This document shows, in pieces, positions 3,106 through 58,971 of a stretch of DNA of 64,000 bases; positions within the stretch are counted from its first letter, which is position 1, and the number at the start of each line of letters is the position of its first letter. The notes beneath the pieces are model-generated. The model searched no databases, was not told where the DNA came from, and saw only the letters and a program-made list of their open reading frames with translations. Source of the DNA: Methanobacteriota archaeon. GTDB taxonomy: Archaea > Thermoplasmatota > E2 > DHVEG-1. A program made the position numbers and the translations under genes. The stretch covers positions 256,001-320,000 of the forward strand of contig CAVYNH010000004.1 of assembly GCA_963769885.1 (NCBI GenBank). Direction: 5' to 3'.

Positions 3106-3115
3106 GTCGTCTTTT

Positions 3116-3313: not shown

Positions 3314-3334
3314 GGTTTCCCTCCTTTTCTTTGG

Positions 3335-4099: not shown

Positions 4100-4115
4100 G
4101 GGGTCTCCTTGTTGT

Positions 4116-8290: not shown

Positions 8291-8364
8291 AGGATCAATG
8301 AAAGAATCCGCTGGTTGGTAATAACATTTTTCGAGGTTTGAGTTATCCTCTATTGCTCAAGGAG

Positions 8365-8427
8365 ACCTGTTAGTGACCACAGGACATTCCCCACAGATAA
8401 GTCCCCACATCATTTTTCCACAGAATC
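8365..8427. mobile_element. Relic terminus of a related IS6-like element abutting the TSD
   Basis: 8386-8427 matches the right end 15609-15650 at 28/42 positions without gaps; shared ACCTGTTA (8365 and 15592); CCACA repeated about every 14 bp. Confidence 0.6.
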
Positions 8428-8435
8428 CACCCCAA
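8428..8435. repeat. Left target-site duplication CACCCCAA
   Basis: Identical 8-mer at 15651-15658; both copies directly flank the TIRs. Confidence 0.9.
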
Positions 8436-8476
8436 GGTTCTGTGTAAAACCGTAGTGGGAATTTTGTAGTGGGAAA
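8436..8476 (+). repeat. Left terminal inverted repeat
   Basis: GGTTCTGTGTAAAACCGTAGTGGGAATTTTGTAGTGGGAAA; 36/41 identical to the reverse complement of 15610-15650. Confidence 0.9.
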
Positions 8477-8546
8477 ATAGGGTTGGTGTTTCTACAGATA
8501 TGTTTTTAAAGAAAAAATCAATATTAAAACATCTTTAAGAGATGAA

Positions 8547-8867
8547 ATGATGGGTTTCTTCAAGAAGAAAGCAGAGGAGAAAACATCTCATATCAAGAAA
8601 ATTGAAACTGATGATAAAGAATTTGAAGATGTCACATTAGAAAAAAATATTGATGCAGATATCGGATATACGAAACGTGATCTTTACATTGTTCCTGGTG
8701 TTGATGAAGTTGATATCCCAAGGTCAAAGGTAAGGCAGGAGTTTTTAACCAGACCTACGAATTATAGATGTACTAAGTGTAAGAGTATCCTCTATAATAC
8801 GAAACTTGATGGTAGACATTATTATTGCCCAATCTGTAATGTGCAATGGGATAAGGACGATTTATAA
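8547..8867 (+). CDS. Hypothetical protein with C-terminal zinc ribbon
   Basis: CTKC...CPIC. Confidence 0.65.
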   Translation: MMGFFKKKAEEKTSHIKKIETDDKEFEDVTLEKNIDADIGYTKRDLYIVPGVDEVDIPRSKVRQEFLTRPTNYRCTKCKSILYNTKLDGRHYYCPICNVQWDKDDL

Positions 8868-8980
8868 TGCCAATTGATTTGCATAAAACCTTAGTTAAAA
8901 CTGTTTTACTGTTTTTCTGATACATTGGATTTGTGTATTTTAGGTTTGCAAACTATTTAAAAACTTAAAGTGTTTATTCT

Positions 8981-9048
8981 TATGCCACCCCTATCAATCT
9001 CACTCATGTGTTTCGCCAACTATGAGTCTTTTTGATGGGGGTGGTATA
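8981..9048 (+). ncRNA. Candidate small hairpin RNA inside the transposon
   Basis: 17-bp stem whose only two non-Watson-Crick pairs are G-U on the + strand; inner 6-bp stem; TTTAAAAA about 25 nt upstream; T-run downstream. Confidence 0.45.
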
Positions 9049-9127
9049 TATAACCAATTTTTCTAAAAACAATATATAAAAGAAAAAGAAAAACTATATT
9101 AGATTAGATTAAATTTCTTATTCTAAA

Positions 9128-9889
9128 ATGCCGATTGCTCTAAGTGTATTTGGATTAGACGAAATAGAAGAGAAAATATTTTTAAATGAAACAAAAAAAA
9201 CCTTCTCTTTATCTGATTTCCAATCAAACCTAGATTCAATTGCGGAGATCAAAGATATCCAGCCAGCTACCACAACTTTCACTCGAACATCCTATAATCC
9301 TCAAACAAAACGAGCAAAGTATTATGTCGAGCATTGGACCGATACAAATAAAGAAATCATTCGTGCTTTCCTGAAAGACCCGGACGAATCAATTCTCTAT
9401 GCTGACCAACTTTTAAAACCATTAGCAACTCATAAATTTGAATATGGATTTCAAACCTTAGTTAAACTTAATATCATGATTGATTTCGTGGACAAAGAGA
9501 TTTTTGTTTTTATGAATAAAAGAATCGCTAAACAGATAATAAATCGTTTGGAGGCAGTAGGAGGTTTAAAATCTCTCCCTATTTTCTTGAACTTAAAAAA
9601 CATAAGTTAAAGTGCAGTTGTTCAAGATGTTAATATTGTGTGGGAAGATGAACTGGATGTTAATGTTAAAAAAATCGGATGGATAGGGGTTCAAGTTCAT
9701 AAAGATAAGAGAGTAGATTTAAGCAAAGCAACTGCAATAAAAGTCGAAATAATAAGCAATCAAAAAATCATCCCTGATGTTTTTATTTCTGATGATGCTA
9801 GATTAAGTTCATTGTCCCCTAATGTGGGCACAAGTGAAATGGTCCAGATTTATAAGATATTAAAGGAGAAGACCAAACAATTAAGTTAG
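9128..9889 (+). pseudogene. About 253-codon hypothetical gene interrupted by one in-frame TAA (9608-9610)
   Basis: ORFs 9128-9610 and 9638-9889 are in the same frame: ...KNIS*SAVVQDVNIVWEDEL... Confidence 0.65.
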
Positions 9890-10537
9890 TAGTTTTTTAA
9901 CAATTTCTTGAACCATTGATAATCCTTTAAAGTTAATGCTAACTGTGTTTTCCATTATTATTTTTATTTTAGTTTTAGATTCTTGGTCCTCCATATTGAT
10001 TATGTAATTCTCAATGACAAAGCCCTTTGGTTTTTTTATGCGAATTAATTTCCATTGAAAAGGAAGTTCTAGATCGAGTTTGCAATTCAACAAAGAACGA
10101 AAAATCTTTTTATTGATAAGACCTTCAAAATCAATTATTATCTCACTTATTTTTTTTGACAAATCTCTTAGTCCGGATTCCATTCTTTCAATTTCTACAT
10201 AGACCTCTTTGATAGATACTTTAAAAACAATAACAGAATAATGGCTATTGGAAAAATCAAGTTTTATTTCATTGTCAATTTTTTTTGTTCCTTCACCAAA
10301 CATTGAATGTACTTCATTTTTTATAATATTAAAATCAGTCTCTGTTTCAAAAGTAAAAATCAACCTAGCATTCGCTCCTTTATTTGTAACGATAGCCCAT
10401 TTTTTTCTTAGTCTATTTAAAAGATCATATTTGTCTTCTATAAGTAAACCTATTATCGAACCCACACAAGTAGTAATGATTAGAATAAAGCCGACATATG
10501 TATTAACAAACTCTACTATTGAATTAAAGTCAGTCAG
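9881..10537 (-). CDS. Hypothetical protein with N-terminal TM helix (probable CTG start at 10537; GTG at 10465)
   Basis: Frame stays open upstream of 10465 and completes a TM segment (YVGFILIITTCVGSIIGLLI); GGTGA SD; overlaps the upstream stop as CTGA. Confidence 0.65.
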   Translation of the reverse strand: MTDFNSIVEFVNTYVGFILIITTCVGSIIGLLIEDKYDLLNRLRKKWAIVTNKGANARLIFTFETETDFNIIKNEVHSMFGEGTKKIDNEIKLDFSNSHYSVIVFKVSIKEVYVEIERMESGLRDLSKKISEIIIDFEGLINKKIFRSLLNCKLDLELPFQWKLIRIKKPKGFVIENYIINMEDQESKTKIKIIMENTVSINFKGLSMVQEIVKKLLT

Positions 10538-10734
10538 CCTTTTTCACCTTCGTTATTTTCCTTGTTTTGTGCTTTTTCAAGGAGTTCGACTTTTTGTAAT
10601 TCGATAAGTCGTAGTCGTAATGTCTCGTGAACAAATTCGCTTGAATCTCTATAAAGAAACCTTTTGTTATTTACAATTTCATTGATTTTTTTATGAATTT
10701 CAATATCTAAGTTTAGGGTCTTATATTTCGCCAT
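10534..10734 (-). CDS. Ribbon-helix-helix (CopG/Arc-like) regulator, divergent from the transposase
   Basis: YKTLNLD...KKINEIV...YRDSSEFVHETLR pattern. Confidence 0.7.
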   Translation of the reverse strand: MAKYKTLNLDIEIHKKINEIVNNKRFLYRDSSEFVHETLRLRLIELQKVELLEKAQNKENNEGEKG

Positions 10735-10814
10735 AACACATATATGGCTTATATATATGTTATACTATTTAAGTATATTTAGATACCTTTAAATAGAGAT
10801 TGTAATATGTAATA

Positions 10815-11999
10815 TTGGCGAAATACATGAGTGAACGAATAGACATTAAAGAAATGGTGAATGCTCGAAGAGCACGAGGCATGATTCTCCTTGAAAACGG
10901 ATTTGAACCAAAGGAAATTAACTCGAAGACATGGATTGTCCCAAGCCAAACAGGGAACGGCACATATACGGTTCATTATGCGGATGATGAACGGACCATT
11001 TGGAGATGCACCTGCAAAGACTTTGAAATTCGAGGGCTCCCATGTAAACATATCAATGCCGTGAAAATCTGGAAAAATCTCCATGATAGATTCGAGCAAC
11101 TAAACCTTAAAGTGAAACAAAGCATCAGCCTTGGAAACACTGAGACTCAAGGATGCAAATTCTGCCATTCATCAGACATCACAAGATACGGCGTGAAAAA
11201 CGGGAAGCAAGTCTATTTCTGTAAATCATGCAATCGAAGATTCGTGAACAATATTGATTTTGAAAACATGAAGTACAACCCTAAGATAATCGCCTTGACG
11301 CTTGATCTCTATTTCAAAGGGATAAGCCTTCGGAAAATCAGCCACCACCTCAAGCAGTTCTATAATCTGAATATCAGCCACAAGTCCGTGTACAATTGGA
11401 TAGAGAAGTACGTAGGAATCATGAATGAGTATGTGAACAGTATTCAACCTGATATTGGGGGCGTGTGGCATACTGATGAGATGATGGTGAAGGTGGATGG
11501 TTCCTGGGAGTATCTCTGGAATGTAATTGATGAAAGCACTCGATTCCAGCTTGCATCTATCGTTTCAAAGGAACGTCACGTTAGGGATGCACGCATGGTG
11601 TTCCAGAAGGCGAAGAAGAATGCTGGAGGAAGGAAACCAAAGTACTTAGTCACGGATGGACTATTAGCATATCGTGAGGCCGTCAATAAGGAGTTTAATA
11701 CGAATCACGGCAATATTGAGCATCTTTGGAATGTAGGGATACAACATCACCCGAACAACAACCATGTAGAACGGTTACATGGCACTATCCGCCAACGGGA
11801 AAAAGTCATACGAGGAATGAAGATAGAAGAGACTCCGATTATCGAGGGACATAGGTTATACTATAATTTCATCAAGCCCCATGAGGCGTTGAACGGAAAG
11901 ACACCATCAGAAGAAGCAGGGATAACCATCGAAGGGGAAGATAAATGGCTTACTCTCATGAAGAAATCAATTCAATATCAGAAGGCGAATAAACAATAA
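10815..11999 (+). CDS. IS6-family DDE transposase with N-terminal SWIM zinc finger and zinc ribbon
   Basis: CTC...CKH (SWIM), CKFC...CKSC, HTH (SLRKISHHL...SVYNWI), WHTDE...LVTDG...NNHVERLH. Confidence 0.9.
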   Translation: MAKYMSERIDIKEMVNARRARGMILLENGFEPKEINSKTWIVPSQTGNGTYTVHYADDERTIWRCTCKDFEIRGLPCKHINAVKIWKNLHDRFEQLNLKVKQSISLGNTETQGCKFCHSSDITRYGVKNGKQVYFCKSCNRRFVNNIDFENMKYNPKIIALTLDLYFKGISLRKISHHLKQFYNLNISHKSVYNWIEKYVGIMNEYVNSIQPDIGGVWHTDEMMVKVDGSWEYLWNVIDESTRFQLASIVSKERHVRDARMVFQKAKKNAGGRKPKYLVTDGLLAYREAVNKEFNTNHGNIEHLWNVGIQHHPNNNHVERLHGTIRQREKVIRGMKIEETPIIEGHRLYYNFIKPHEALNGKTPSEEAGITIEGEDKWLTLMKKSIQYQKANKQ

Positions 12000-12059
12000 C
12001 CCCTTCTTTTTTTCTTTTGCCAAAATTAAAGAAGAATCGAACAATATCGAATATCAGTT

Positions 12060-14885
12060 ATGGAAGATGACCTTGTTAAACAAAAAGTACAATCACTCAT
12101 AGATGATTTCAGAAGTAATTATAACGAATACAAGAAAGAATCCGAAGCTAGTATAGAAACAAAACTAATTGAACCACTCTTCAAATGTTTAGGTTGGACT
12201 GAAAAAGATTTTAGCAAACGAGAACGAACACAACGAGAAGGCAAACTAGGTTTTGCGGATTACACGTTCTACATAAAAGATAAGAAAGTATTTTTCCTCG
12301 AAGTAAAAAAGATTGGAGTGCCGTTAGACAAAGAGGCAGATGCACAAGTCGTATCTTATGCTCTATCAAAATCTGTTTCCATCGCAATCTCGACGAATTT
12401 CGAACAGCTCAAAGTGTTTTGTGTCGAAGAAGAGAATTTAGATAAAAGAATGATTTCAATCTTCAAAACACCAGAAGATTACCTTGACAAATTCTATGAT
12501 TTGATTTTACTTTCTAAGTCTAGTTTTGAACAAGATCTCTTAATGAAAAAAGCTGAAGACCTTAATCTATTAAAAAAACGGATAACCATAGATAAACCAC
12601 TTCTTGACAACCTAATTCTTATCCGTAAGTTCATTGCTGATGATATAGAGAAAAAATATTCAGGGAAATATCAACCCAATGAAAAAGAAGAGATCATACA
12701 AAGAATTATCGACAGACTGATTTTCATCAGGAAATGCGAGGACACAGGAATTAACCCAGAGAACCTGACCCTAAAAGATGTCCTCACAGTAACTGATGAA
12801 AAAGCATACAAAAAATTAAAAGAGATATTCGAAGAATACAATACTCGATACAATAGTGGATTATTCGCCATCGATAAAGACAATGAATGCGATAGGATAC
12901 AGATAACTGGAGATATAATTAAAAAACTCATTGGATATCTCTACATTTCCAGAAACGGAGGATACCACTATAATTTCGAATGGATACCTGCCGATATTCT
13001 TGGACAAGTCTATGAACAATACCTTGGAAAGATACTAGAACAAACAAAATCAGGTAAAGCCAAACTAACAAATGGACAGGTACATCGAAAGGAACAAGGC
13101 ATTTATTATACGCCTACCTTTGTCGTTGATTATATCGTAAAAACTACAGTTGGAGAAGTGTTGAAGAATAAAAAAGTAAAAGTAAAGGAATTAAAAATAT
13201 TGGACCCTGCTTGTGGCTCGGGTTCTTTCTTAATCAAAGCTTTTGATTATATCTACCGAAATCAATCAACCGGGGATTCTCAACAATATAGAATTGACGG
13301 TCAAGGGCAGTATTCTGTTAAAACAGAGATACTGAAAAATAATCTGTACGGAGTGGATTTAGATAATAAAGCAATAGAAATAACCAAGTTAAATTTACTC
13401 TTAAAAGCAGCGGAGAAAGGAAGACGTTTACCTGTAGAGATTGACATCAACATAAGACAAGGAAATTCATTAATCGACGACGAATCAATTGCAGGATTGA
13501 ATGCTTTTAAGTGGACCGACAAAACAAAAAATAAGGACAACAGGAAATTTGACGTAGTTATTGGAAATCCGCCTTATATCAAGGTAGAACAAATTAAAAA
13601 AGAAGAAAAAGAATGGATTTATCAAAATTTTGAAAACGCTACTGGAAGAACTGATTTATACGTACTTTTTTTAGAGAAAGCATTAGAGCTAACAAAGGAC
13701 GACGGCCTAATCTCTTTCATTATTCCAAGTATATGGATGAAAGCGAAATATGGAGAAAAACTAAGAGAGAATTTGGTAAGAAACTATCAGATAAAATCAA
13801 TCATCGACTTCGGCGATCTTAAGGTCTTTGAAAGTGTCACCACTTATCCATGTATCATTTTGATTAAAAAGAAGAAACCAACTGGAAACGACACCATCAT
13901 CTATTATAAAGTTCCTAGTTTGAATGAATCAATAATTAACAATCTTGAAAATGCTATAAAAAAGGACTCTTGGATGATTAGGCAAAAAGAATTTGATTGG
14001 AACTTTGCAAATCCACAGGTAAAAAAAATATTCGATAAATTAAACAAATCATCAAAAATCAGGCTAAGTGACCTAAGAGACCAAATTTATGAAGGTTTGA
14101 TTACCGGAGATAACAAGGCTTTTTTTGTTGATAGAGAGACAGTAGAAACAAAAAATCTCGAAAGGGAATTGTTAAAACCTGTTCCAAAAGGAAAAAACAT
14201 CAGACGTTTTTCAATTCGGTGGGAAAAAGAATATGTCATATATCCTTACAAACAGAATATGCTTAAGACTGAACCTGTTAATATCAAAGAATATCCAAAC
14301 GTAAATTCTTACCTTGCTGAATTTGAAAAAAAGCTCACAGCTAGAACCTCAATTAAAGGGACTAACAAAAAATGGTTTGAACATGTTCGTCCTAGAGAAA
14401 AATGGTGGTTTGAAAAACAAAAAATCTTAACTCCAAACCTATCATCAAGTAACAACTTTGCTATTGACGAAGGACGTTCAAATGAATATTTTTATGTTGA
14501 CCATGATGCATATGCGATTACGCTAAAAACAAATAGCAGAGAAGATTTATTGTTTATTTGTGGGCTTCTTAATTCATCTCTTATAGAGTTTTACATTAAG
14601 CAGATAAGTCCTATGTTCTCAGGTGGATATTACAAATATCATACTCAATATCTTGATCCAATCCCGATAATTAAACCATCTAAAAAAGAAGAAATCAGAT
14701 TCGTGAAATTAGTCGAGAGGATTATTCTTCTGAATAAAACATTAACAAAGATTGGCGATAAAAAGACTGCCGAAAGTGCAAAACTCGAAGAAGAAATTAA
14801 GAAAGTTGATAATCAAATCGATGAACTTGTTTTTGACCTCTACCATTTGACCAAAGACGAAAAGGAGATTATTAAAAAATCTTAA
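12060..14885 (+). CDS. Type IIG restriction-modification fusion (nuclease, N6-adenine MTase and TRD)
   Basis: N-terminal ADY...EVKK nuclease; GIYYTP, LDPACGSGSFL and GNPPY; TaqI-C-like C-terminus. Confidence 0.9.
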   Translation: MEDDLVKQKVQSLIDDFRSNYNEYKKESEASIETKLIEPLFKCLGWTEKDFSKRERTQREGKLGFADYTFYIKDKKVFFLEVKKIGVPLDKEADAQVVSYALSKSVSIAISTNFEQLKVFCVEEENLDKRMISIFKTPEDYLDKFYDLILLSKSSFEQDLLMKKAEDLNLLKKRITIDKPLLDNLILIRKFIADDIEKKYSGKYQPNEKEEIIQRIIDRLIFIRKCEDTGINPENLTLKDVLTVTDEKAYKKLKEIFEEYNTRYNSGLFAIDKDNECDRIQITGDIIKKLIGYLYISRNGGYHYNFEWIPADILGQVYEQYLGKILEQTKSGKAKLTNGQVHRKEQGIYYTPTFVVDYIVKTTVGEVLKNKKVKVKELKILDPACGSGSFLIKAFDYIYRNQSTGDSQQYRIDGQGQYSVKTEILKNNLYGVDLDNKAIEITKLNLLLKAAEKGRRLPVEIDINIRQGNSLIDDESIAGLNAFKWTDKTKNKDNRKFDVVIGNPPYIKVEQIKKEEKEWIYQNFENATGRTDLYVLFLEKALELTKDDGLISFIIPSIWMKAKYGEKLRENLVRNYQIKSIIDFGDLKVFESVTTYPCIILIKKKKPTGNDTIIYYKVPSLNESIINNLENAIKKDSWMIRQKEFDWNFANPQVKKIFDKLNKSSKIRLSDLRDQIYEGLITGDNKAFFVDRETVETKNLERELLKPVPKGKNIRRFSIRWEKEYVIYPYKQNMLKTEPVNIKEYPNVNSYLAEFEKKLTARTSIKGTNKKWFEHVRPREKWWFEKQKILTPNLSSSNNFAIDEGRSNEYFYVDHDAYAITLKTNSREDLLFICGLLNSSLIEFYIKQISPMFSGGYYKYHTQYLDPIPIIKPSKKEEIRFVKLVERIILLNKTLTKIGDKKTAESAKLEEEIKKVDNQIDELVFDLYHLTKDEKEIIKKS

Positions 14886-15430
14886 AGACTAAATATTTTA
14901 ATCTCTTTTATTTTTTCATTGACATTTTCAGGAGAGCAACATGGTAAATATTTTTCTGCATTCTTACAAAAAATCGAATCAGTAGAAACTAAGAGGTCAC
15001 AACCTACTTCTAATGCTGTTGCGAGATGAATCGAATCAGAAGCAGAAAGATTAGACTCTTTGCAAATCTTTATTGCCTTTTCGATGGCTACTTCATCTAA
15101 CCAATAAAATTGTACAAATTTATATGGAGTGAAAAACCTGTTTTTGATTTTTGTATAAATTAATTCTAGGGTCTTATCTGATAAATCTTTATCATCCCTT
15201 TTTCTTAAAATTTTTTTAAATGTCCATCCTTCTTTGATTTTTTCATAGATAAATTCATTATCCTTCTGCACACTTAAAGCTTCCATTAATGCAAATTGAG
15301 ATGTAATACAGTCCCATCCATTATTTTTTATTTCCTCTATCAGGTCAATGGAAGGAGTATGTATGCCTTGGACAATGTCAACAATGATGTTTGTATCTAT
15401 GTAAATCTTGGGTTTTATGAATACTTCCAT
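14882..15430 (-). CDS. PIN-domain (VapC-like) nuclease
   Basis: IYIDTNI...EA...DSIHLATA...LVSTD acidic PIN motifs. Confidence 0.85.
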   Translation of the reverse strand: MEVFIKPKIYIDTNIIVDIVQGIHTPSIDLIEEIKNNGWDCITSQFALMEALSVQKDNEFIYEKIKEGWTFKKILRKRDDKDLSDKTLELIYTKIKNRFFTPYKFVQFYWLDEVAIEKAIKICKESNLSASDSIHLATALEVGCDLLVSTDSIFCKNAEKYLPCCSPENVNEKIKEIKIFSL

Positions 15431-15432
15431 AA

Positions 15433-15591
15433 TTAAAATCTTGGCCTTCTTTTTTTGACATGTCTTGATGGTTTCCTTCTTCTACTGAAAAAAACTTTAT
15501 TGGAACTTATAGATTGACCATCCATAGTCTCCTCTGCCTTGCCTTCTGAATAATTAATCTCTGATTTATCATTTTCCTTTTTGTCGGCCAT
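15433..15591 (-). CDS. 52-aa ORF directly upstream of the PIN gene (possible antitoxin)
   Basis: MADKKENDKSEINYSEGKAEETMDGQSISSNKVFFSRRRKPSRHVKKRRPRF*, ending 2 nt before the PIN ATG. Confidence 0.5.
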   Translation of the reverse strand: MADKKENDKSEINYSEGKAEETMDGQSISSNKVFFSRRRKPSRHVKKRRPRF

Positions 15592-15609
15592 ACCTGTTAC
15601 CACTCTTGA

Positions 15610-15650
15610 TTTCCCACTACTAAATTCCCACTACTCCCTTACACAGAACC
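15610..15650 (-). repeat. Right terminal inverted repeat
   Basis: Reverse complement reads GGTTCTGTGTAAGGGAGTAGTGGGAATTTAGTAGTGGGAAA. Confidence 0.9.
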
Positions 15651-15658
15651 CACCCCAA
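15651..15658. repeat. Right target-site duplication CACCCCAA
   Basis: Identical to 8428-8435. Confidence 0.9.
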
Positions 15659-15671
15659 CAAGGTTTATATA
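15657..15671 (+). promoter_or_regulatory. BRE/TATA promoter of the ribosomal protein operon
   Basis: Purine-rich AACAAGG followed by TTTATATA (15664-15671), about 200 nt before rpl3. Confidence 0.65.
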
Positions 15672-15867
15672 CCAAATCCGGTATGCCAAGTAATCCTGGT
15701 CCTAACCAGACACGCATCCGGGCAATACCCACCACGGGCACCCCCGGCAAACAACGACCCACCAATCACTTCTTGGGCCGCGGCGGACATGTCACGGTTA
15801 GCGACACACACCACAGCAGGAAACCGAAGGAAACTTCAGTCTTCCAACTCACGGCAGAGGATACATT

Positions 15868-16860
15868 ATGCCAAACATCCACCATCCAAAAAGAGGCTCC
15901 CATGGATACTGGCCCCGCAAACGCGCCGCCAGCCAAACCCCCCACATCCAACGCTGGATCCAGGGCGGCGACAAACCCAAACTCCAAGCCTTCTTCGGAT
16001 ACAAAGCCGGCATGACCCACGCCTTCGTCGTCGACTACCGACCCACCAGCACCACCAGCGGCCGCGAAGTCAAAGTCCCCGTCACCGTCGTCGAAACCCC
16101 CCCTATGAGAATCGCCGCCATCCGCGCCTACCAACGCGACGCCTACGGCCTCCACGTCACCTACGAAACCTGGGCAGACAACCTCGAACCAGAACTCAAC
16201 CGACGCATCCCCATGCCTAAGAAAAAAACCCAGGCTCCAAAAGAGATCCCCACCGACGCCGAAGAAATCCGCGTCATCACCTACACCCAACCCAAACTCG
16301 TCACCGGCGTCCCCAAAAAAGCCCCCGAGATCACCGAAGTCAAAATCGGCGGCGGCACCATCCAAGACCAGATCACCTACGCTAAAAGCATCCTCGGCAA
16401 AGAACTCAAAATCAGCGACGTCGTCAGCGAAGGCGACATGCTCGACACCATCGCCGTCACCAAAGGCAAAGGATTCCAAGGCACCATCAAGCGCCACAAC
16501 GTCAAACTCCTCTTCCACAAAAACAGCAAACACCGACGCCTCATCGGCACCGCAGGCTCCTGGCACCCCAGCTACGTCCAAGCCACCGTCCCCCAGGCGG
16601 GACAAATGGGCTACGCCCAACGCACCGAATACAACAAGCGCGTCCTGAAGATCGGCGACAACGGCACCGAGATCACCCCCGCCGGCGGCTTCCCCAAATA
16701 CGGCGTCGTCCGCAACTCCTACATCCTCCTCCACGGCAGCATCCCCGGGCCCACCAAACGCCTCATCGGACTCCGAGACGCCATCCGCTACCAGCGCGGC
16801 GTCAAAGTCCAAAAACCAGAGGTCACCTTCATCTCAGTCAGCAGCAAACAAGGAGTGTAA
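15868..16860 (+). CDS. rpl3: 50S ribosomal protein L3 (uL3)
   Basis: PKRGSHGYWPRKRA, GYKAGMTH, KGKGFQG, AGQMGY. Confidence 0.97.
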   Translation: MPNIHHPKRGSHGYWPRKRAASQTPHIQRWIQGGDKPKLQAFFGYKAGMTHAFVVDYRPTSTTSGREVKVPVTVVETPPMRIAAIRAYQRDAYGLHVTYETWADNLEPELNRRIPMPKKKTQAPKEIPTDAEEIRVITYTQPKLVTGVPKKAPEITEVKIGGGTIQDQITYAKSILGKELKISDVVSEGDMLDTIAVTKGKGFQGTIKRHNVKLLFHKNSKHRRLIGTAGSWHPSYVQATVPQAGQMGYAQRTEYNKRVLKIGDNGTEITPAGGFPKYGVVRNSYILLHGSIPGPTKRLIGLRDAIRYQRGVKVQKPEVTFISVSSKQGV

Positions 16861-50365: not shown

Positions 50366-50785
50366 AATCGTGTTTCCCCCTTGTAGGACTTATCATCCTT
50401 GGGTTATTTCATGGTTTCGCTCTCGGAGGGGGCGTGAAAAGGGCGGGGATGGCGGAATGTCAGGGTTGTTTTAAATAGGATGGCGGCGGAAGCAGGGTCA
50501 GGTGAACACGTGAAATACCAGCAGAAGAAGACCTATGGTGAGAGATGGGAGCACAAAGGCTATCGGCACCAATACCGAAAGAAGTATCCGCAGAAGAAAA
50601 ACTCTTCGTATAAGACGCAGTACGCCAGCTGAGCCGGTCTCCGGTCGGTTGGCGCGCAACTCCAGCTGAACCCTCATTCTTCCTCTCTCGCATCTCATTT
50701 TTCTTTCTTCTTTTGTTTTTCTGTTTTTTTATCGAAGCGATGGTACGAGTCATTAAGTAATATTGGCTGTTATCCCCTTGTGCGG

Positions 50786-51538
50786 ATGCAGCGGACACAA
50801 GGCGACCTCTATCCGCTTGTGAAGGATCTGAGGACGAAGGCGCAGTTCACGCGCGAGATTTCCAAGCGGTACCAGGCGTACGGGGAGTTACTGGACAAGG
50901 ATACGATCGCGTTTTTGTTGGTTGATGAGTTGGGGCGCAATTCCTTCAGTCTGACGCCGATCTCCCGGTTGGCGGCAGGGATGGATGCGACCGTGGTCGC
51001 GATGGTAGGGGGGGTCGCCGAGGTGAAGACGTTTCGGAAGAAGAACGGGACGGTTGGCAAGGTCCTCAATCTCGATATCGCAGACGAGTCCGGGGGCTGT
51101 CGATTGGCGCTCTGGAATAAGGACATCGAGCTGGTGAAGAGCAAAGGGATTTCGGTGGGCACCCGGATCCGGGTCATCAACGGGTACACGAAGGACTCGT
51201 ATGGTTGCGCGGAGTTGAATCTGGGGAAATGGGGGATGCTGGAAGTCGAGCCTATGGCCGAGCAGACTTCTGACTCATCGATTGATCAGGTCCTCAGTGG
51301 CGTCCTTGTGAGCCGGGAGGCGACTCGCGCTTTTTTCAAAGAGAACGGCGAGATTGGGTTTGTGACGTCGATAACCGTAAAAACCACGAGCGGGGAGATC
51401 CTGCCGGTGACGTTGCGTGATGCGTCGGTGAAGTCGATCCAGGGCATCAAGCTTGGGGAATCGATCGCTTTGCAACGAGGACCGAACGCGATCAAAAACG
51501 GGACCGACGAGTGGCATTTCGGTCGCACAGAAGGATAA
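50786..51538 (+). CDS. Replication protein A/SSB-like OB-fold protein
   Basis: KTFRKKNG...GKV...DESG...LW OB fold, repeated. Confidence 0.8.
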   Translation: MQRTQGDLYPLVKDLRTKAQFTREISKRYQAYGELLDKDTIAFLLVDELGRNSFSLTPISRLAAGMDATVVAMVGGVAEVKTFRKKNGTVGKVLNLDIADESGGCRLALWNKDIELVKSKGISVGTRIRVINGYTKDSYGCAELNLGKWGMLEVEPMAEQTSDSSIDQVLSGVLVSREATRAFFKENGEIGFVTSITVKTTSGEILPVTLRDASVKSIQGIKLGESIALQRGPNAIKNGTDEWHFGRTEG

Positions 51539-51880: not shown

Positions 51881-53371
51881 TTATTGAACAATCATGTTCG
51901 CTGAGGATTTGCCGGCGAGAGCCTGCCTGCCCTTCTCAGTTATGTACACGGCCTTGGACCGGCCGTACTTCTTCACGAAGACCAACCCCAAGGACTCCAG
52001 CATCCGCAGCTTGATCGTCGTCGTCGAATAGGCGATGACAAACTTCATCCGAATCTTTTTGAACGAAACGACCACGTTGCTTTGATTTTGCTCGTACACG
52101 TACCGGAGGATTGCGACCAGGGAATCATCAATCTCCACCGGGGCCTCGACCTGCGACGGCAGGACGTGAAGCTCATGGCTGAGGAGCGCCCGCTCCCGCT
52201 CAGAGAAGAAGACGGGGTCCGCCTGCACGAACAGGATGGCGTTCGTTTCAGAGATCGCCTCGGTCGCCTTGTAGATGAACCGGAGAAACTCATCAAAGGA
52301 GAATCGACTGATCAGGTAGTCGACCCGGGACAGCAGGATTACACAGTTCTTCCGATGTCTGATGAACTCCTTGATCACGGCCAGCATCTCCTCCAGCGTC
52401 GACACCGCCTCAGGACCGCGTTTCATTTCCTTGATGAGGCGGACTTGAACGCCCTCCAGGGGAAGCCCAAAGAGCGTCTCCGGGGAATTCACCCGTGTCA
52501 TCAACAACCCATGGCTATCGGTCCTGGTCAGGGAGAAGAACGGATGGTTTGCCGTGAGCGGCGGCCGCTCGAAGCTAATATAAGCCCGGCCCTTGAGAAG
52601 CTCCTGGTGCCGCTTCTGCTCCGCCGTGATATCCTCAGCGAGAAGCACAAGACTGAGGTCCGTGTCGCTTGCCTGGGTGAGGAAGGAATGCCTCAGGCCG
52701 AGAACGCACTCCACGCCGTTTATATCTCGGATACAGATCTCCTGCAACGACACCTTCTTCCCATGAAAGACCGCGTCGATTTCCTCGGCCAGCAGTTTTG
52801 GGTCACTGAAGACGCCGCATTCCTCCACCCTCTTCCGCATGATGTCTCGCTGCCGGACACCAGTAATCCGCTCAATGGTTTTGTTCCACAGGAAAATCCG
52901 GTGCGTCTGGTCGATGGAGATAATCACGTTGGACGCATTGCCGATGATGTTGTTAAGCTGACTACGGTACTGCAGCAGCTGTGTCTCCATCAGATGCTTG
53001 TAGACGGCGATCTCGATGTTGCTTTGCAGCTCGTGGTCTTCCACGGGCTTGATAATGTAACCGTACGGCTCGGTGATTTTCGCACGGCTCAGTGTTTTGG
53101 TATCCGTGTACGCCGTCAGGAACACCACCGGGATCCTATACAGGATTCTGATTTGCTTTGCCGCTTCGATGCCGTCCATGTCACCGCCGAGTTGGATTTC
53201 CATGAGGATGACATCAGGGTGAAGGTCCTTCGCCTTTTGCACCGCCTCCTGACCGGAGGTCGCGATGCCGGGAACCCTGTACCCGAGTTTCTCAAGACGT
53301 TTTTTGATGCTGGCGGCGATGATGAGCTCGTCCTCGACGAGTAGGACTCGGATTTTTTCCATGGTTTTCAC
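51881..53371 (-). CDS. Receiver-PAS-DUF835-wHTH signalling protein
   Basis: LLVEDE...FLTA...IIKP receiver; PAS; DUF835-like (GLLMTR, VILLSRVDYL); C-terminal wHTH (VYITEKGR). Confidence 0.85.
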   Translation of the reverse strand: MKTMEKIRVLLVEDELIIAASIKKRLEKLGYRVPGIATSGQEAVQKAKDLHPDVILMEIQLGGDMDGIEAAKQIRILYRIPVVFLTAYTDTKTLSRAKITEPYGYIIKPVEDHELQSNIEIAVYKHLMETQLLQYRSQLNNIIGNASNVIISIDQTHRIFLWNKTIERITGVRQRDIMRKRVEECGVFSDPKLLAEEIDAVFHGKKVSLQEICIRDINGVECVLGLRHSFLTQASDTDLSLVLLAEDITAEQKRHQELLKGRAYISFERPPLTANHPFFSLTRTDSHGLLMTRVNSPETLFGLPLEGVQVRLIKEMKRGPEAVSTLEEMLAVIKEFIRHRKNCVILLSRVDYLISRFSFDEFLRFIYKATEAISETNAILFVQADPVFFSERERALLSHELHVLPSQVEAPVEIDDSLVAILRYVYEQNQSNVVVSFKKIRMKFVIAYSTTTIKLRMLESLGLVFVKKYGRSKAVYITEKGRQALAGKSSANMIVQ

Positions 53372-53635
53372 CTCTTCCTCCTCTCTTTGCTCGGGAACCC
53401 GATGGTAAAGACTGCTCCATTCGACCGGCCCAAGTCGATGGTCTCATGCAGCTGGCTGATGAGGATATTCACCAGTTGGAGCCCCAAGGGTTTTCGCGGC
53501 CCGGAAATCCAGCCCGGGTGGGAAACCCAACGCTGCCGTCACCAGCACCGAGATTAGCGCGTACTCAGAGTGATTTATCGCACACGAGAAAACACACAGG
53601 ACCTATAAAAGCCAACGCCCCAGGAGAAATCCTGA

Positions 53636-53962
53636 CTAACATCCGCCCTGCACATATCTCGCATGATGCTCCCACGCCTCCTGCGCCCGCTGCAGCTCCC
53701 GGCCCAGATACAGATAATGCGTCGCCAACAAGGGCGGCACCCGCTTCTCGATCGTATCGCATAACGCGTCCGCCCGCGTCCCCGTAAACACCATCTCCAA
53801 CCGACCAGACACGATCCGCCCCCCACGAACCACGTTCGAATAGAACTCCACCCGAATCCCACCCTTCGCTGCCTCAATCACGAAGAACCCCGCGGGATCT
53901 AATATTACATCCTTCTGCGCGGTCTTGCGCGCCGCATACGACGGCACCTCCCTATCCACCAT
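53636..53962 (-). CDS. DUF4346-like protein
   Basis: LDPAGFFVI...HYLYLGRELQRAQ...YVQ. Confidence 0.8.
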   Translation of the reverse strand: MVDREVPSYAARKTAQKDVILDPAGFFVIEAAKGGIRVEFYSNVVRGGRIVSGRLEMVFTGTRADALCDTIEKRVPPLLATHYLYLGRELQRAQEAWEHHARYVQGGC

Positions 53963-54851
53963 ACACCCTCACCTTCGCCTCCTGCAAATTCCTCAATTTA
54001 TGAAACGCAACCTCACGCGGCAACATCCGCAGCCCGCAATCCGGCGCCACCTGCACCACCCGACACCCGAACACCTCCTCCGCCCGCTCCAAATGACTGG
54101 CAATCTCCTCAACAGCCTCCACCCGCGCATCATCCGCCCGCACCGCCCCCACACACATCCCCTTCTCCGACGGATACTCCCGAAACGTCGCAAACAACTT
54201 TGGTGATGCCGCAAACTCATGCGACAACACATCCACCGGCATCCCCACCAACCGCCCCACAATCCCAGAGACGTTCCCGCACACATGCAGCCGCATCGGA
54301 CACGCCACCCCCCGACTCACGATCCCGATCGCCTCCTCCGCATACTCCGGCAGCTCATTGCTGAACCACGGCTCATCCACACTCACCATATCCACAAACC
54401 ACGACAACGCCGCCGCCTCCTGCCGCAACGCCTCCGCAAACGCCAGACAGCACGCCCGCTCATCACGATAAAACGAATCCACACACGACTTCATCAACGT
54501 AAACGGCCCCGTCACCACCCCCAGCACCTTCACCGACGGCCCCACCACTCGACGCACCACCTCCGCGTCCCGCACCGTGATTCCCCCACAATACTCAATC
54601 GGACCCACCACCTCGGTCCGCGCCCGCACCCGACAGCCGCCCAGCCGCCGCGCGAACAACTGCACGAACGGATCCCGCGTCTGCCCATCAGACACCAGCT
54701 CGATGCCCGCCTCCACCATATCACCCACCGCGTCCACGATATACGGGTTCCACGACACCTCCTCCCCAGCGAAGTACTGCGCCATCAACTCCATCGGCGG
54801 CACCACGACCGGATACGACCCGACGACGCTGCTCAATACGCACCGACTCAT
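53952..54851 (-). CDS. Single-barrel (core) MetE-type methionine synthase, methylcobamide:homocysteine methyltransferase (MesA-like)
   Basis: 299 aa; VGSYP, SDGQ, GPFTL, VDEP; Zn ligands HVC, E, PDCG; no N-terminal folate barrel. Confidence 0.88.
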   Translation of the reverse strand: MSRCVLSSVVGSYPVVVPPMELMAQYFAGEEVSWNPYIVDAVGDMVEAGIELVSDGQTRDPFVQLFARRLGGCRVRARTEVVGPIEYCGGITVRDAEVVRRVVGPSVKVLGVVTGPFTLMKSCVDSFYRDERACCLAFAEALRQEAAALSWFVDMVSVDEPWFSNELPEYAEEAIGIVSRGVACPMRLHVCGNVSGIVGRLVGMPVDVLSHEFAASPKLFATFREYPSEKGMCVGAVRADDARVEAVEEIASHLERAEEVFGCRVVQVAPDCGLRMLPREVAFHKLRNLQEAKVRVYGG

Positions 54852-55756
54852 GGGGACAGCACCCTCCGCGGATGCCGCACCGCCGGGCAGACCCCGAAGT
54901 ACGCCTCTGTATACTCGGACACGACCATGTCGAACCAGGCCATCAACGGCACCACCACGGGAGCATGGACGATCGGGCCGAAGACCGCGAAATCACCGCC
55001 GAACAAGGCGACCCCCGCGTTCGACGCCGCATCCACCACGTCCTTCACATCCCCATACCGATGTAGCCATTTCGACTTCTCCACGACGTTATGGATCGCG
55101 CAGCCTGCAGGCAGCCCGTACTCCTCCTTGATGACCGGCAGCGACGCCAGCGCGGCCCCGCTGTTCTGCCCCGGCGCAAGCGCCGCGGTGTCCACCAGAA
55201 TCTTCTTCAGCCCCAGCGAGGATGCGACCGCCAGCAGCCCGCTTTCGATGAGGTGGGCCCCGTTTTCGAGGACTTCAACCCGCCCATCAGGGGATGAATC
55301 CTTGGGGTTGAACGCGACGATGATCGCCATCGCCGGCGGATGCGCCTTCAACGCCTCGCGTTCCGGTGCGGTTATCCCGATGTGCAGCGAATTATAGATT
55401 GTCCGGTCCAACAACCCGTGATCGCGTAGTGCCTCCAACGCCTTGACCTTGATCGCCGGTTCGATGACATCCACAGAGAACGGATGCCCGTCCGGGAGAT
55501 GCTGTTCCAGGAAATCAAGGATCGGCTCGAGGTACTCCTCCTTGCGGATGAAGACATCCGGGATTGTCGGCATCCCGGTCTCCTCGCCTGCCCGCAGCAT
55601 CGCCGCAAGCTGCGGAGCCGCGGCCGAGAAATGAGGCGCCCCTTTGAAGAATAGACCGCCGAACAACACCGTGGGATGCTCCCCCGGCTGTCCTCCAAAA
55701 TAAATCCCGCCGATCTCCATGACCTGCTGAGCCTTCGTAAACGAATACACCCTCAC
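54848..55756 (-). CDS. mtrH: Methyl-pterin:corrinoid methyltransferase, MtrH family
   Basis: FTKAQQVMEIGG..FGGQPGEHPTVL, IYNS, VDTA, GLPAGCAIHN, FGPI. Confidence 0.88.
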   Translation of the reverse strand: MRVYSFTKAQQVMEIGGIYFGGQPGEHPTVLFGGLFFKGAPHFSAAAPQLAAMLRAGEETGMPTIPDVFIRKEEYLEPILDFLEQHLPDGHPFSVDVIEPAIKVKALEALRDHGLLDRTIYNSLHIGITAPEREALKAHPPAMAIIVAFNPKDSSPDGRVEVLENGAHLIESGLLAVASSLGLKKILVDTAALAPGQNSGAALASLPVIKEEYGLPAGCAIHNVVEKSKWLHRYGDVKDVVDAASNAGVALFGGDFAVFGPIVHAPVVVPLMAWFDMVVSEYTEAYFGVCPAVRHPRRVLSP

Positions 55757-56319
55757 TCACCTCTTTTCCTAACCCGACCCCGGGCGTCAATCATGATCCG
55801 CGCATGCAACGCCCGCGCGTCCCCAAGGCCGACTGTGGCCTCCGGCTTAATCCGAATCGCAATGTACGGTTCGCCGAACAAGGGCGGCGCCCGCTGATGA
55901 AGCTCTACGATCTGTTCGGACAACCGTCCCGGGTCCACGACCCCCACACAGTCCACGGTCTCTATCTGCTCGCGGAAACGGTTGATGGCCTCCTGTGTGA
56001 TGTTCTCGATGTACGGGATCGCCCCTGGCGCCTGGATGATCCGATGGTGTTCGTCGATGCCATGGCGGTGCAACGCCAGCAGCGACGCCCCGGACCGATG
56101 CCCGCGGATCTCCTCGCCGCAGACGACGACGTAGCGGATATGCGGGTTGGAGATTACGTTCGCCACGACCTTTTCGATGCCGATATTCTCCGTCTTCAGC
56201 CGCCCATAGATCGCCACGTCCGACGGAGGAGCGTACTCGATATTGAGCAGCACCACGGCGACGCAGCCGGTTGACGGGCCTGTCGTGAACTCACCGCCCC
56301 ATGGATAGTACTCGGTCAT
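55753..56319 (-). CDS. mtrA: Soluble MtrA-family corrinoid protein (no membrane anchor)
   Basis: KTENIGIEKVVAN.ISNP.IRY...CGEEIRGH (cobalt-ligand His), GAIPYIEN. Confidence 0.9.
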   Translation of the reverse strand: MTEYYPWGGEFTTGPSTGCVAVVLLNIEYAPPSDVAIYGRLKTENIGIEKVVANVISNPHIRYVVVCGEEIRGHRSGASLLALHRHGIDEHHRIIQAPGAIPYIENITQEAINRFREQIETVDCVGVVDPGRLSEQIVELHQRAPPLFGEPYIAIRIKPEATVGLGDARALHARIMIDARGRVRKRGE

Positions 56320-56353
56320 GACTGACGGAGACTGATAACGAAATCACAGGTTT

Positions 56354-56986
56354 TTAATCTGCCGAAGCAAGACAGTAGCAGATGATTTCCTCGGCGGCGA
56401 ACCACTGCCGCCCCACGATAGTCCCAGTAAGTCGACCTTGGCGAAACAAGGTGGTGACTACCTCCGGCGGCGACCGGGAGCTGATGATGGTATAGGCCCG
56501 TGCATTGGCAGTAAAGAACCGCCCGACGTCCTTAAGGAAGCGGCCGGTGACCGCAAGGCCGCCAGCCCCACCGCTCGTTGCCAAATCCAGCCATTGATCG
56601 AGCAATTCACCAGCAGGGGTCGGCACGTACGGGGGGTTGAAGACAATGAGGTCGAACCGTTCTCTGGGTCGGACGACGGTGAAGAGGTCACCGAGGCGAA
56701 CGTCCATGATCCCAATGATGCGGGACTGGTTTCGTATAAGGTTCTGCCGGCAGTTCTCCACAGCGTGCGGGTTGCAGTCGCTGGCGACGACGCGGGCGCC
56801 GGCGTGGGCGCAGGCCAGCGCGATGATGCCGCAGCCGGTGCCCAGCTCGAGGACCGCCTCCTGCGGCCGCGGATGGATATTCTCGAGGAGGAGGAAGGTG
56901 TCTTCGGCAGGGTCGTAAACCCTAGGGTCGACGTCGATCATCAAACCCTGGTACGAGAAGGCCTTCGGGTGCGCTTGTTCACGCAT
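56354..56986 (-). CDS. HemK2/N6AMT1-type SAM methyltransferase
   Basis: VYDPAEDT, LELGTGCG, FNPPY. Confidence 0.9.
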   Translation of the reverse strand: MREQAHPKAFSYQGLMIDVDPRVYDPAEDTFLLLENIHPRPQEAVLELGTGCGIIALACAHAGARVVASDCNPHAVENCRQNLIRNQSRIIGIMDVRLGDLFTVVRPRERFDLIVFNPPYVPTPAGELLDQWLDLATSGGAGGLAVTGRFLKDVGRFFTANARAYTIISSRSPPEVVTTLFRQGRLTGTIVGRQWFAAEEIICYCLASAD

Positions 56987-57305
56987 TCCCCAGGATATTT
57001 TCTCAGGGTTATATAAGGACTCGCGAATTCGAAAAACAGAGAGGGAGAGAGGGGGTAGTCAGTAAATAGACAAATAATGAGGGAGCGGGGCTCATGGAAA
57101 CGGGTAGTCAAAGTCTAGGCTACGGTGTATTTTTGGAAGCTGTTGACGCCTATTTGGTCTCAGTTGAAACGCCAGCAAGTCGTGGAATGCACGGGAAGAC
57201 CGCCTGACTACCTTTTTTATAAGTAACGTTGGTAACAGATACGTTGATATATTTAAATAGGAAACAACAGTACGTACTTGTACTAAAGATTGGGGGAAAT
57301 TCGTC

Positions 57306-58971
57306 ATGAAGCATTCACTCGTTGCACTCGTCCTCGTCACGCTGATGCTGTGCAGTGCTGTCACAGGTACTGGGAAACCGAATCGCGCCTGAGGCCCGCG
57401 CCGTCACGGCTGACGATTGGTGGGCGCAGATGCACCACGACGCGGGGAACACCGGCAGCACGACCGCCGCAGGACCCACCACCTACCAACCGTACTGGCA
57501 GACCACGCTGATGGAAAGCATCACCGACGCGGTCCCACTCGTCGTCAACAACCGCGTCTACATCAACACCAACTCTTACTACAAAGATACGACGACGCAC
57601 CCGCTGACCCTGTTCGGTTCCACGCCGATGACCCCACAGCGGGTCCTCCAAAACCTTGAAGGCGGACCCGGCGCCGCCTACTGCCTCAACGCCACGACCG
57701 GCGTGCAAATCTGGCGCCACGCCGTCTACGCCCCCAACCACCCCGTCTACCTTAACGGCAAACTCTACTTCACGGACATGAACACGGGATCCTACACCGG
57801 CTACCTCTACTGCCTCAACGCCACGACTGGCACCCAGGTCAGCGCCACCCCCTTCGCCGGCGTCGGCACCAGCCCGACTATCACGGCTAACAGCAAGCTC
57901 TACTACGGTACCCTGGACCTCTACTCTATTACCAGCACCATCATCTGCGCTTCATCCTCCGGCACTACCCTCTGGACCTATTCTATCCCCGGCTACCAAG
58001 TGGTCTTCTCTGCCCCCGCCGTCGACAGCGGGAACCTCTACGTCATCTCCTGCGACCTCTACGGCTACTACTCTTATACCGGCACCCTGATCTGCCTGAA
58101 CGCAGACACGGGCGCCTACAAATGGTCCCACACCATCGGCACCTTGTTCTCCTATTACTACGTGGCCCCCACCCCCATCGCCTCCGCCGGCAAGGTCTAC
58201 GTCACCGACATCAACCTCTACGGCTACTACTCCTACATCCGCTGCTACGTCGGAAGCACCGGCGCGACCGCCTGGTCCTACCCCATCTACATGGGTGTCC
58301 CGATCGGCAACCTCGCCCTCTCCGACGGCGCTGTGTACGGTACCTATGCGGACTTAAACGCCTACGGCACAGACCTCATCAAACTCTACGCCACCAACGG
58401 CACTCGACAATGGACCACCCTGGTCACTGCCAACTCATACAGTCTTTTCGGTGGAACCATCTGCGGTGCAGACAACGTTCTCGTCACCTCCTCCGACGGT
58501 ACAACCGAGTACCCCAACATCATCATCACCCTCAACAAGACAAACGCCGACTATGTCTGGTCCTACACCCTCCCCTTCCAAATTCCAGGCGGCCTGTCGC
58601 TCTGCGGCGACACCCTCTATTTCGCGGGTATCGACGGCAGCGTCTATGCGGTCAAAGACCAGCTTAAAATCACCCGCTTCGCTGGAGGATTCCTCCGCGC
58701 CAAAGCCGTCCTCACCAACAACGGCCCTCACCCATTCACCACCATCACCTGGCTCTTCAACGTGAACGGCGGCTACTACGGAAAAATCAGCCTTTCGACC
58801 AACAGCACAATCTCCCTTATCAACGGCAGCCAAACCATAGTAGTCTCCATCGGACCAATCTTCGGCATCGGCAAGATCCACCTCGACTTCTTCGCCACCC
58901 CCCAAGGATGCTCACCTATGCGCCGTAGCGGTGAAGGGATCGTCTTCGGCCCCTTCATCCTCGCCCACTGA
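57306..58971 (+). CDS. Secreted PQQ-like beta-propeller protein; +1 frameshift just after the signal peptide
   Basis: WAQMHHDAGNTG; repeated YCLNATTG...W. Signal peptide MKHSLVALVLVTLMLCSAV from ATG 57306 is one base out of frame. Confidence 0.8.

Follow-up and report, generated by a model that had tools for sequence, protein, structure and literature searches.

A conserved MtrA-MtrH-MetE-DUF4346 operon of Thermoplasmatota as a probable split, cobamide-dependent methionine synthase

A four-gene operon that probably encodes a soluble methionine synthase

We describe four closely packed genes on the minus strand, at positions 53636-56319, of a 64,000-nt stretch of contig CAVYNH010000004.1 (assembly GCA_963769885.1), referred to below as the window. 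The genes encode an anchor-less MtrA, an MtrH, a single-barrel (core) MetE and a DUF4346 protein, and together they probably specify a soluble, multi-subunit, cobamide-dependent methionine synthase that would be a split functional analogue of MetH. Its methyl donor would be methyl-tetrahydrofolate (methyl-H4F) or, less likely, methyl-tetrahydromethanopterin (methyl-H4MPT). The host is represented by a metagenome-assembled genome (MAG) from the phylum Thermoplasmatota, 2.09 Mb in 7 contigs and 92% complete. What we show is gene content, catalytic motifs, conservation, phyletic complementarity and the lack of alternatives; we infer in which direction the methyl group flows, which pterin is the donor, that a physical complex forms and whatever role DUF4346 may have.

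In the proposed relay, a MetV-MetF pair encoded elsewhere in the genome would convert methylene-tetrahydrofolate (or a related pterin) to the methyl-pterin, from which MtrH would move the methyl group to the Co(I) cobamide carried by MtrA. The core MetE, acting with a zinc-activated homocysteine thiolate, would then take the methyl group from methyl-Co(III)-MtrA, yielding methionine and returning the carrier to Co(I). DUF4346, as a small accessory subunit, would most likely dock on MtrA and/or the pterin enzyme and stabilise or orient the relay. The homocysteine would come at least from S-adenosylhomocysteine (SAH) hydrolase, and the system would in this way close the methyl cycle of S-adenosylmethionine (SAM). 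A soluble relay of this kind had been put forward in an earlier note on this DNA (the original prediction), and every genomic check that the note called for supports it.

Gene layout and catalytic motifs

Profile scans matched all four open reading frames (ORFs), and their families, to the packed minus-strand genes claimed originally. The mtrA-like gene for a soluble corrinoid carrier lies at 55753-56319 (188 aa; PF04208, 163 bits against a cut-off of 25) and is followed by an mtrH-like gene for a predicted methyl-pterin:corrinoid methyltransferase at 54848-55756 (302 aa in the longest ORF; PF02007, 172 bits, cut-off 22.8). The core metE, a candidate methylcobamide:homocysteine methyltransferase gene, occupies 53952-54851 (299 aa; PF01717, 94 bits), and the gene of DUF4346 (PF14251, 'PterinBD-DUF4346'), a probable accessory subunit, occupies 53636-53962 (108 aa; 66 bits, cut-off 29.6). 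As for the overlaps that had been read from the sequence, the ATGA shared by mtrH and metE and the 11-nt overlap of metE with the DUF4346 gene are present, but a GTGA joining mtrA to mtrH exists only if the longest mtrH ORF is taken. Because related proteins open with MFSFTK, the true start of mtrH is probably the GTG at 55750 (300 aa), two nucleotides past the mtrA stop; the two genes are contiguous whichever start holds. GC content and third-codon-position GC (GC3) are uniform over the four genes and their neighbours, and thus give no sign of recent import. An Rfam scan of 52500-57500 returned no RNA family at E <= 1, hence no riboswitch.

MtrA aligns over its entire cobalamin-binding domain with 5LAA (137 bits), the cobalamin-bound cytoplasmic MtrA homologue of Methanothermus fervidus. 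This alignment pairs H74 with the cobalt ligand His84 of the crystallised M. fervidus protein, E44 with Glu54 and I101 with Ile111, the latter two forming a hydrogen-bond linkage with His84 (Wagner et al. 2016, PMC4915002); all three residues are invariant among 66 orthologues. An anchored MtrA has ~240 aa, and the shorter protein encoded here has no hydrophobic or transmembrane C-terminal segment (maximum Kyte-Doolittle value for a 19-residue window, 1.34; tail mean, -0.4); its C-terminal tail of ~30 residues is hydrophilic and conserved (D167, H172 and neighbours). Judged from its 188 aa and the missing hydrophobic segment, MtrA is a member of the 'cytoplasmic MtrA homologue' class, homologues of which occur in some non-methanogens (Wagner et al. 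2016, PMC4915002). Both the lack of an anchor and the cobalt-ligand histidine are therefore as first described. A search of the whole genome found a single MtrA and a single MtrH, both within the cluster.

For MtrH, the likeness to methanogen MtrH (9QTP, 138 bits) nearly equals that to MtgA, the methylcorrinoid:tetrahydrofolate methyltransferase of Desulfitobacterium (6SJ8, 126 bits), and its score of 178 bits against TIGR01114, the equivalog model of methyl-H4MPT-specific MtrH, lies under the cut-off of 271. We regard the protein as a member of the family whose pterin is not fixed by sequence alone. MtrH methylates cob(I)alamin from methyl-H4MPT according to Hippler and Thauer (1999), as cited in PMC7005905.

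The third protein is the single-barrel MetE with zinc ligands that had been described: its 299 aa carry PF01717 only, apart from a faint URO-D/MtaA-like signal (20 bits), and no adjacent second PF01717 or PF08267 gene provides another barrel. In full-length MetE, the N-terminal barrel (PF08267) contributes to the binding of methyl-folate polyglutamate. When a profile of the clade of the operon's MetE is aligned to MetE of Thermotoga maritima, it matches the C-terminal barrel, with the motifs GSYP/GSFP, IDEP, H-x-C, E and DCG in register. The zinc set (H189-x-C191, E212, C272) is invariant in 65 relatives, and the homocysteine motifs G11-S12-Y13-P14 (Y or F at position 13) and D159-E160-P161 are invariant or nearly so in 65 sequences. 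The nearest NCBIfam equivalog is NF002119 'methionine synthase', which presumably represents MesA; the score of 209 bits is under its curated cut-off of 258. For MesA itself, Price et al. (2021, PMC7857596) ask for at least ~40% identity to the enzyme characterised from M. marburgensis. The core MetEs that have been characterised accept methylcobalamin but neither methyl-H4F nor methyl-H4MPT (Schroeder and Thauer 1999, cited in PMC7005905 and PMC7857596). In a maximum-likelihood tree of 46 MetE-family sequences, drawn from Thermoplasmatota only, the MtrA-linked MetEs form one clade (support 99/92), separate from both kinds of split-MetE half, catalytic and N-terminal-like.

The genome lacks a recognisable alternative

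Whole-genome searches found no McrA, no PF02574 homocysteine-binding domain of the MetH/BHMT type and no second MetE, the core MetE being the sole PF01717 gene; the absence of mcr, metH and full-length metE, named at the outset as a check, thus holds in this 92%-complete genome. HcyBio was likewise not found. Ten proteins with a B12-binding domain are encoded, one of 136 aa and the others of 440-650 aa, none of which has the length of MetH. Nor was there a sign of a full Mtr complex that could use these subunits: neither a second MtrA nor an MtrE was found, the latter being the only one of subunits B to G that was searched. With no McrA found in a genome of this completeness, we take the host to be a non-methanogen; the relatives of its MetE all come from Thermoplasmatota sediment MAGs, including SG8-52, SM1-50 and SCGC AB-539-N05, none of which is annotated as a methanogen.

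The supply pathways fit into this picture. A MetV-MetF pair, FolD and SAH hydrolase are present, and neither Mer nor Mch was found in the genome; the cell most likely makes a methyl-pterin of the folate type. The donor had originally been given as methyl-H4MPT or a related pterin; with this enzyme set, methyl-H4F is the more likely donor and methyl-H4MPT the less likely one. Pterin-binding PF00809 domains (MetH, AcsE, DHPS) were found neither in the genome nor in a genus-mate, which, given MetV-MetF and FolD, leaves MtrH as the only candidate user of the methyl-pterin. By the same logic, SAH hydrolase without any other synthase leaves the core MetE as the only candidate to remethylate homocysteine. 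The genome search also returned no CdhD/CoFeSP corrinoid protein. Neither the genome nor the genus-mate yielded a CobS. With its ten B12-binding-domain proteins the cell clearly uses cobamides, but apparently it must import them complete. A reductive activase of the RamA/RACo type (PF14574) was not found in either genome.

As a separate observation, the failure to find PF00809 in a genome that has enzymes of folate-type one-carbon metabolism suggests perhaps a dependence on imported folate or else an unrecognised pterin pathway.

The cluster is conserved and complements MetH

Conservation of the cluster was scored by tblastn with the four proteins at 80 MetE-relative loci, one genome per species, with 43-78% MetE identity. 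The order MtrA-MtrH-MetE-DUF4346 on one strand is kept in essentially all of these Thermoplasmatota loci that are not cut by a contig end. Thus, some 80 species-level relatives retain the cluster, a check that the original prediction had named, and so do more distant lineages: two divergent contigs (L095 and L145), whose proteins show 36-50% identity to those of the window, have the same gene order. In L145 (positions 545-4336), the genes run aspartate kinase-MetF-MtrA-MtrH-MetE-DUF4346 on the same strand, MetE being split into two ORFs by an apparent frameshift in that assembly; this string links the cassette to a reductase that forms methyl-pterin and to an entry enzyme of the aspartate family. 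Departures from the common order concern MtrA, which is displaced upstream by 2.4 kb in L033 and by 5.6 kb in L035, and which in L056, a complete chromosome, is absent from the locus and present as a single copy elsewhere. MtrH still adjoins MetE where MtrA is displaced.

A fifth conserved partner was sought in the flanks of the 80 loci, and none was seen besides recurrent housekeeping neighbours, namely, an RPA-like OB-fold protein, RadA, NAD kinase and HemK2/MTQ2. The functional unit is therefore the four genes.

For a wider view, we used a sample of 201 genomes drawn evenly from the phylum. Matches were found to DUF4346 in 25 genomes, to MtrA in 29, to any PF01717 in 57 and to PF02574 in 20. 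All 16 genomes of the window's own family have the cluster, with a single PF01717 match each, and it recurs in eight genomes from seven other families. MtrA and MetE are both present in 24 of the 25 DUF4346 genomes. None of these 25 has a gene of MetH length; two encode a short PF02574 protein (308 or 410 aa). Other families carry MetH (9/9 genomes in one of them, for example) or a split MetE made of two adjacent PF01717 genes. A second MetE-family match, which could mark a split MetE, was seen in none of these 16 family members. Outside the family it occurs in only one or two cluster genomes: the one in G089 is probably a single frameshifted gene, and G022 is too fragmented for a call. In this sample, the cluster and full-length MetH are mutually exclusive. 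As related genomes are not independent, we take the phyletic picture as a pattern and not as a statistic.

Two groups of genomes stand apart. Four near-complete genomes of one genus (G121, G164, G168, G184) have an MtrA-like domain in a frame of 267-289 aa and no DUF4346 or clear MetE. A further genome (G016) encodes a single MetE, on a long branch that is sister to the MtrA-linked clade, and has no MtrA or DUF4346. Both groups may represent variants of the system or decayed remains of it.

DUF4346 as a candidate docking subunit

The genome has one DUF4346 gene, that of the cluster, and the domain is kept at the 3' end of the cluster in at least 75 of the 80 loci. An alignment-based model of the protein (mean predicted local distance difference test, pLDDT, 92.6) has a three-stranded meander of long beta-strands packed against two helices. 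Against the Protein Data Bank (PDB), Foldseek returned nothing at E <= 0.001, and an exhaustive VIA-align comparison reached no more than Z = 5.8, to PSRP-3/ribosomal proteins, a background-level value; the fold itself points to no function. Structural neighbours in the ESM Atlas were all PF14251 proteins (TM-scores 0.69-0.74). Conserved polar residues comprise D22, E39, N43, H82, Y85, E89, Y103 and Q105, and a C-terminal GGC is nearly invariant. The sequence has no cysteine cluster and no nucleotide-binding, redox or ATPase motif.

The partners to which the domain is fused were also surveyed. An exhaustive HMMER search of 1.84 billion proteins yielded 521 representative DUF4346 proteins at E <= 0.001, many of them stand-alone and of ~100-130 aa. 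Ten longer proteins were scanned, and eight of these are MtrA-DUF4346 fusions, one with an added thymidylate-synthase-like domain; the other two combine a DHPS-like pterin-binding domain with a C-terminal DUF4346. The ESM Atlas contains the same fusion architectures plus ThyA-like-DUF4346. A word-index search for longer, fused DUF4346 proteins had found nothing; the fusions came from the exhaustive HMMER search and the ESM Atlas. Since the domain travels with MtrA-type carriers and pterin-dependent enzymes, these data fit a docking or stabilising subunit between the MtrA-type carrier and the pterin enzyme. Of the two roles that had been suggested for DUF4346, adaptor or reactivation subunit, the domain fusions fit the adaptor; reactivation finds no counterpart in a redox or ATPase motif, in a structural match or in RamA/RACo.

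MtrA-DUF4346 fusions from another genomic context are worth recording in their own right (proteins P0176, P0187 and P0206 and one contig). One of them adjoins a thymidylate-synthase-like gene and a dCTP deaminase gene, another joins MtrA and DUF4346 with a ThyA-like domain, and one perhaps carries an intein-like insertion (24 bits, under cut-off). An MtrA/DUF4346 module may thus also serve pyrimidine or one-carbon metabolism, apart from methionine.

Relation to known systems

In our searches of the literature, we found no description or test of an MtrA-MtrH-MetE-DUF4346 operon and no mention of DUF4346. Nonetheless, the idea is partly anticipated by Price et al. (2021, 2024) and Loh et al. (2021). 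MesA has been defined as a core MetE restricted to methanogens, with MtrA as its predicted donor (Price et al. 2021, PMC7857596), and the two are neighbours in 'a few genomes' (Price 2024, PMC11378808). In 'Ca. Methanomethylicus', a metE homologue has a corrinoid protein-MtrH pair as its neighbour, and this pair might be anabolic (Loh et al. 2021, PMC7886697). For non-methanogens, the function of MtrAH has been called unclear, or methyl funnelling or methylation of coenzyme M (CoM) has been proposed (PMC9635834; PMC11291895; bioRxiv 10.1101/2020.03.09.984617). We predict that the operon specifies a three-component corrinoid methyltransferase system with MetH-like function, made up of MtrA, MtrH and a MesA-like MetE with a new fourth subunit.

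MesA and the core MetE of the operon are both single-barrel MetE-family enzymes of ~300 aa that have the zinc site and no folate-binding N-terminal barrel; NF002119, if we are right to equate it with MesA, is their common nearest model, and an MtrA-family corrinoid protein is the proposed donor in both cases. The score against this model falls short of the cut-off, however, and the settings differ. MesA was defined as confined to methanogens, where it presumably draws on the membrane Mtr, whereas the host studied here is without McrA or MtrE, and its MtrA is soluble, dedicated and encoded in one operon with MtrH, MetE and DUF4346.

The proposed chemistry, from methyl-pterin through a His-on cobamide cycling between Co(I) and methyl-Co(III) to zinc-activated homocysteine, is that of MetH, and the pterin-binding barrel, the B12 carrier and the homocysteine barrel are all present. 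In contrast with MetH, each part is a polypeptide of its own, and homology to MetH does not hold module by module: the B12 domain is of the MtrA type instead of the MetH Rossmann/cap type, the homocysteine module is of the MetE type instead of PF02574, and there is no SAM-dependent reactivation domain.

Systems of the MT1-corrinoid protein-MT2 type, such as MtgABC of Desulfitobacterium and MtaABC of Methanosarcina, likewise co-encode two methyltransferases with a small corrinoid carrier, and MtgA is itself an MtrH-family enzyme, with the above-mentioned 126 bits to the MtrH of the operon. The operon differs in its MtrA-type carrier, which is not of the MtaC/MtgC type, in the proposed anabolic flow from pterin to thiol, in having DUF4346 as a fourth conserved subunit and in that no RamA-type activase was found. 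Another MtrA homologue paired with an MtrH homologue, as here, is reportedly encoded by the mtxXAH genes of methanogens, said to have been described by Harms and Thauer in 1997. The cytoplasmic MtrA homologues (Wagner et al. 2016, PMC4915002) resemble the MtrA of the operon in being anchor-less, ~170-190 aa long and in keeping His84. Unlike the operon proteins, these homologues and mtx are found in methanogens beside a full Mtr complex, with no linkage to MetE or DUF4346 described in the papers that we consulted.

Weighing the alternatives

Methyl transfer from a pterin to a thioether is exergonic by ~30 kJ/mol, and methanogens need the Na+-driven membrane Mtr for the reverse. Thermodynamics and the lack of another methionine synthase together argue for the anabolic direction. 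We consider it improbable that the operon runs catabolically, with the MetE-like enzyme demethylating methionine, methanethiol, dimethyl sulfide or methylmercaptopropionate onto MtrA and with MtrH feeding the pterin pool for oxidation or assimilation. Flow from thioether to pterin would be endergonic by roughly 30 kJ/mol in a system that is soluble and without a Na+-driven membrane Mtr; no CODH/ACS corrinoid protein was found, so there would be no Wood-Ljungdahl sink; the genome and the entire family would be left without a methionine synthase; and MetE retains all of its homocysteine-binding motifs. This has to be set against the literature hypothesis that non-methanogen MtrAH funnels methyl groups into the Wood-Ljungdahl pathway (PMC9635834), against the fact that the relative MtgA, whose NCBIfam model matches the MtrH of the operon, works from corrinoid to tetrahydrofolate, and against the ability that MetF and FolD could have to oxidise methyl-H4F.

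A relay that is real but methylates CoM or another small thiol strikes us as similarly improbable. A methyl-tetrahydrofolate:CoM methyltransferase has been proposed for the mtrAH of Methanomassiliicoccales (Speth and Orphan, as quoted in bioRxiv 10.1101/2020.03.09.984617), and MetE, besides scoring under the methionine-synthase equivalog cut-off, shows its faint URO-D/MtaA-like signal. This signal of 20 bits is, however, far from the 94 bits to PF01717, and the GS(Y/F)P and DEP motifs, which in MetE hold the amino-acid part of homocysteine, are invariant. With no McrA found, methyl-CoM would have no use, and neither the genome nor the family has another methionine synthase to spare this one. 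We give equally little credence to a direct route, in which the core MetE would take the methyl group from methyl-pterin itself, with DUF4346 replacing the N-terminal barrel and with MtrA and MtrH merely co-regulated. DUF4346 does always immediately adjoin MetE, it is fused to pterin-binding enzymes in other organisms, and in L033, L035 and L056 the MtrA gene is not linked to the other three. On the other hand, methyl-tetrahydrofolate and methyl-H4MPT are not substrates of the core MetEs that have been characterised, as reported through PMC7005905 and PMC7857596, DUF4346 is fused to MtrA and not to MetE in 8/10 fused representatives, MtrA and MtrH accompany this MetE clade in 24/25 genomes, and MtrH remains beside MetE even where MtrA is displaced.

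The cobamide-dependent methionine synthase that we favour has its own difficulties, and the following points weigh against it. MetE and MtrH both score under the cut-offs of their equivalog models, such that the substrate specificity of either may differ from that of characterised enzymes. CobS was not found, which would make methionine synthesis dependent on imported cobamide, and with no RamA/RACo activase the rescue of oxidised Co(II)-MtrA is unaccounted for. The MtrA-DUF4346 fusions beside thymidylate-synthase-like genes indicate that this pair is not exclusive to methionine synthesis. In a genome that is 92% complete, single absences are no proof, a point softened by the family-wide pattern. 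Finally, the system is a prediction, not a demonstrated enzyme.

A broader idea, which we offer only tentatively and consider rather unlikely, is that soluble MtrA and DUF4346 form a general, ancient one-carbon relay module serving different pterin enzymes, MtrH/MetE here and thymidylate-synthase-like or DHPS-like enzymes elsewhere, whether fused to the pair or encoded beside it. DUF4346 would then dock the carrier to the pterin barrel, and the energy-conserving membrane Mtr of methanogens would be a later elaboration of this biosynthetic module and not its source.

Neighbouring genes and other features of the window

Directly downstream of the operon, and convergent with it, the RPA-like OB-fold gene (50780-51538 in the window) is found in 70 of the 80 relatives. 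In the window, a response-regulator gene (51881-53371; receiver, PAS and DUF835 domains, winged-helix tail) lies between the operon and this gene. As the OB-fold gene adjoins the operon directly in those 70 relatives, the regulator is a lineage-specific insertion beside the operon.

On the upstream side, a HemK2/MTQ2-type SAM-dependent methyltransferase gene (56354-56986, minus strand) stops 34 nt before mtrA. We considered this enzyme as a SAM-dependent reactivator and rejected it: the protein passes the archaeal HemK2 model (128 bits against a cut-off of 87), and its gene is the upstream neighbour in only 19 of the 80 related loci. A TATA-like TTAAAAA at 56351-56357, which overlaps the HemK2/MTQ2 stop codon and lies ~35 nt before the mtrA ATG, could be a candidate promoter of the operon.

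Farther away, positions 8000-16000 of the window form an island of 33-36% GC, compared with 55-63% elsewhere. It encodes an IS240-family DDE transposase with a SWIM finger (10815-11999), an Eco57I/MmeI-like type IIG restriction-modification enzyme of 941 aa (12060-14885) and a PIN-domain protein (14882-15430), and is probably a horizontally acquired mobile defence island.

Implications

If true, the proposed function would give a job to the 'methanogenesis' genes MtrA and MtrH in many archaea and bacteria that do not make methane. It also addresses the question of what donates the methyl group to folate-independent 'core' methionine synthases in the cell (PMC7857596), and with four small soluble proteins both questions become testable. 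DUF4346 would gain its first functional context, and a third methionine synthase architecture would stand beside MetH and MetE. 'Methanogenesis' annotations in metagenomic surveys of sediment archaea would need correcting, and abundant benthic Thermoplasmatota would rely on external cobamide for methionine and the regeneration of SAM.

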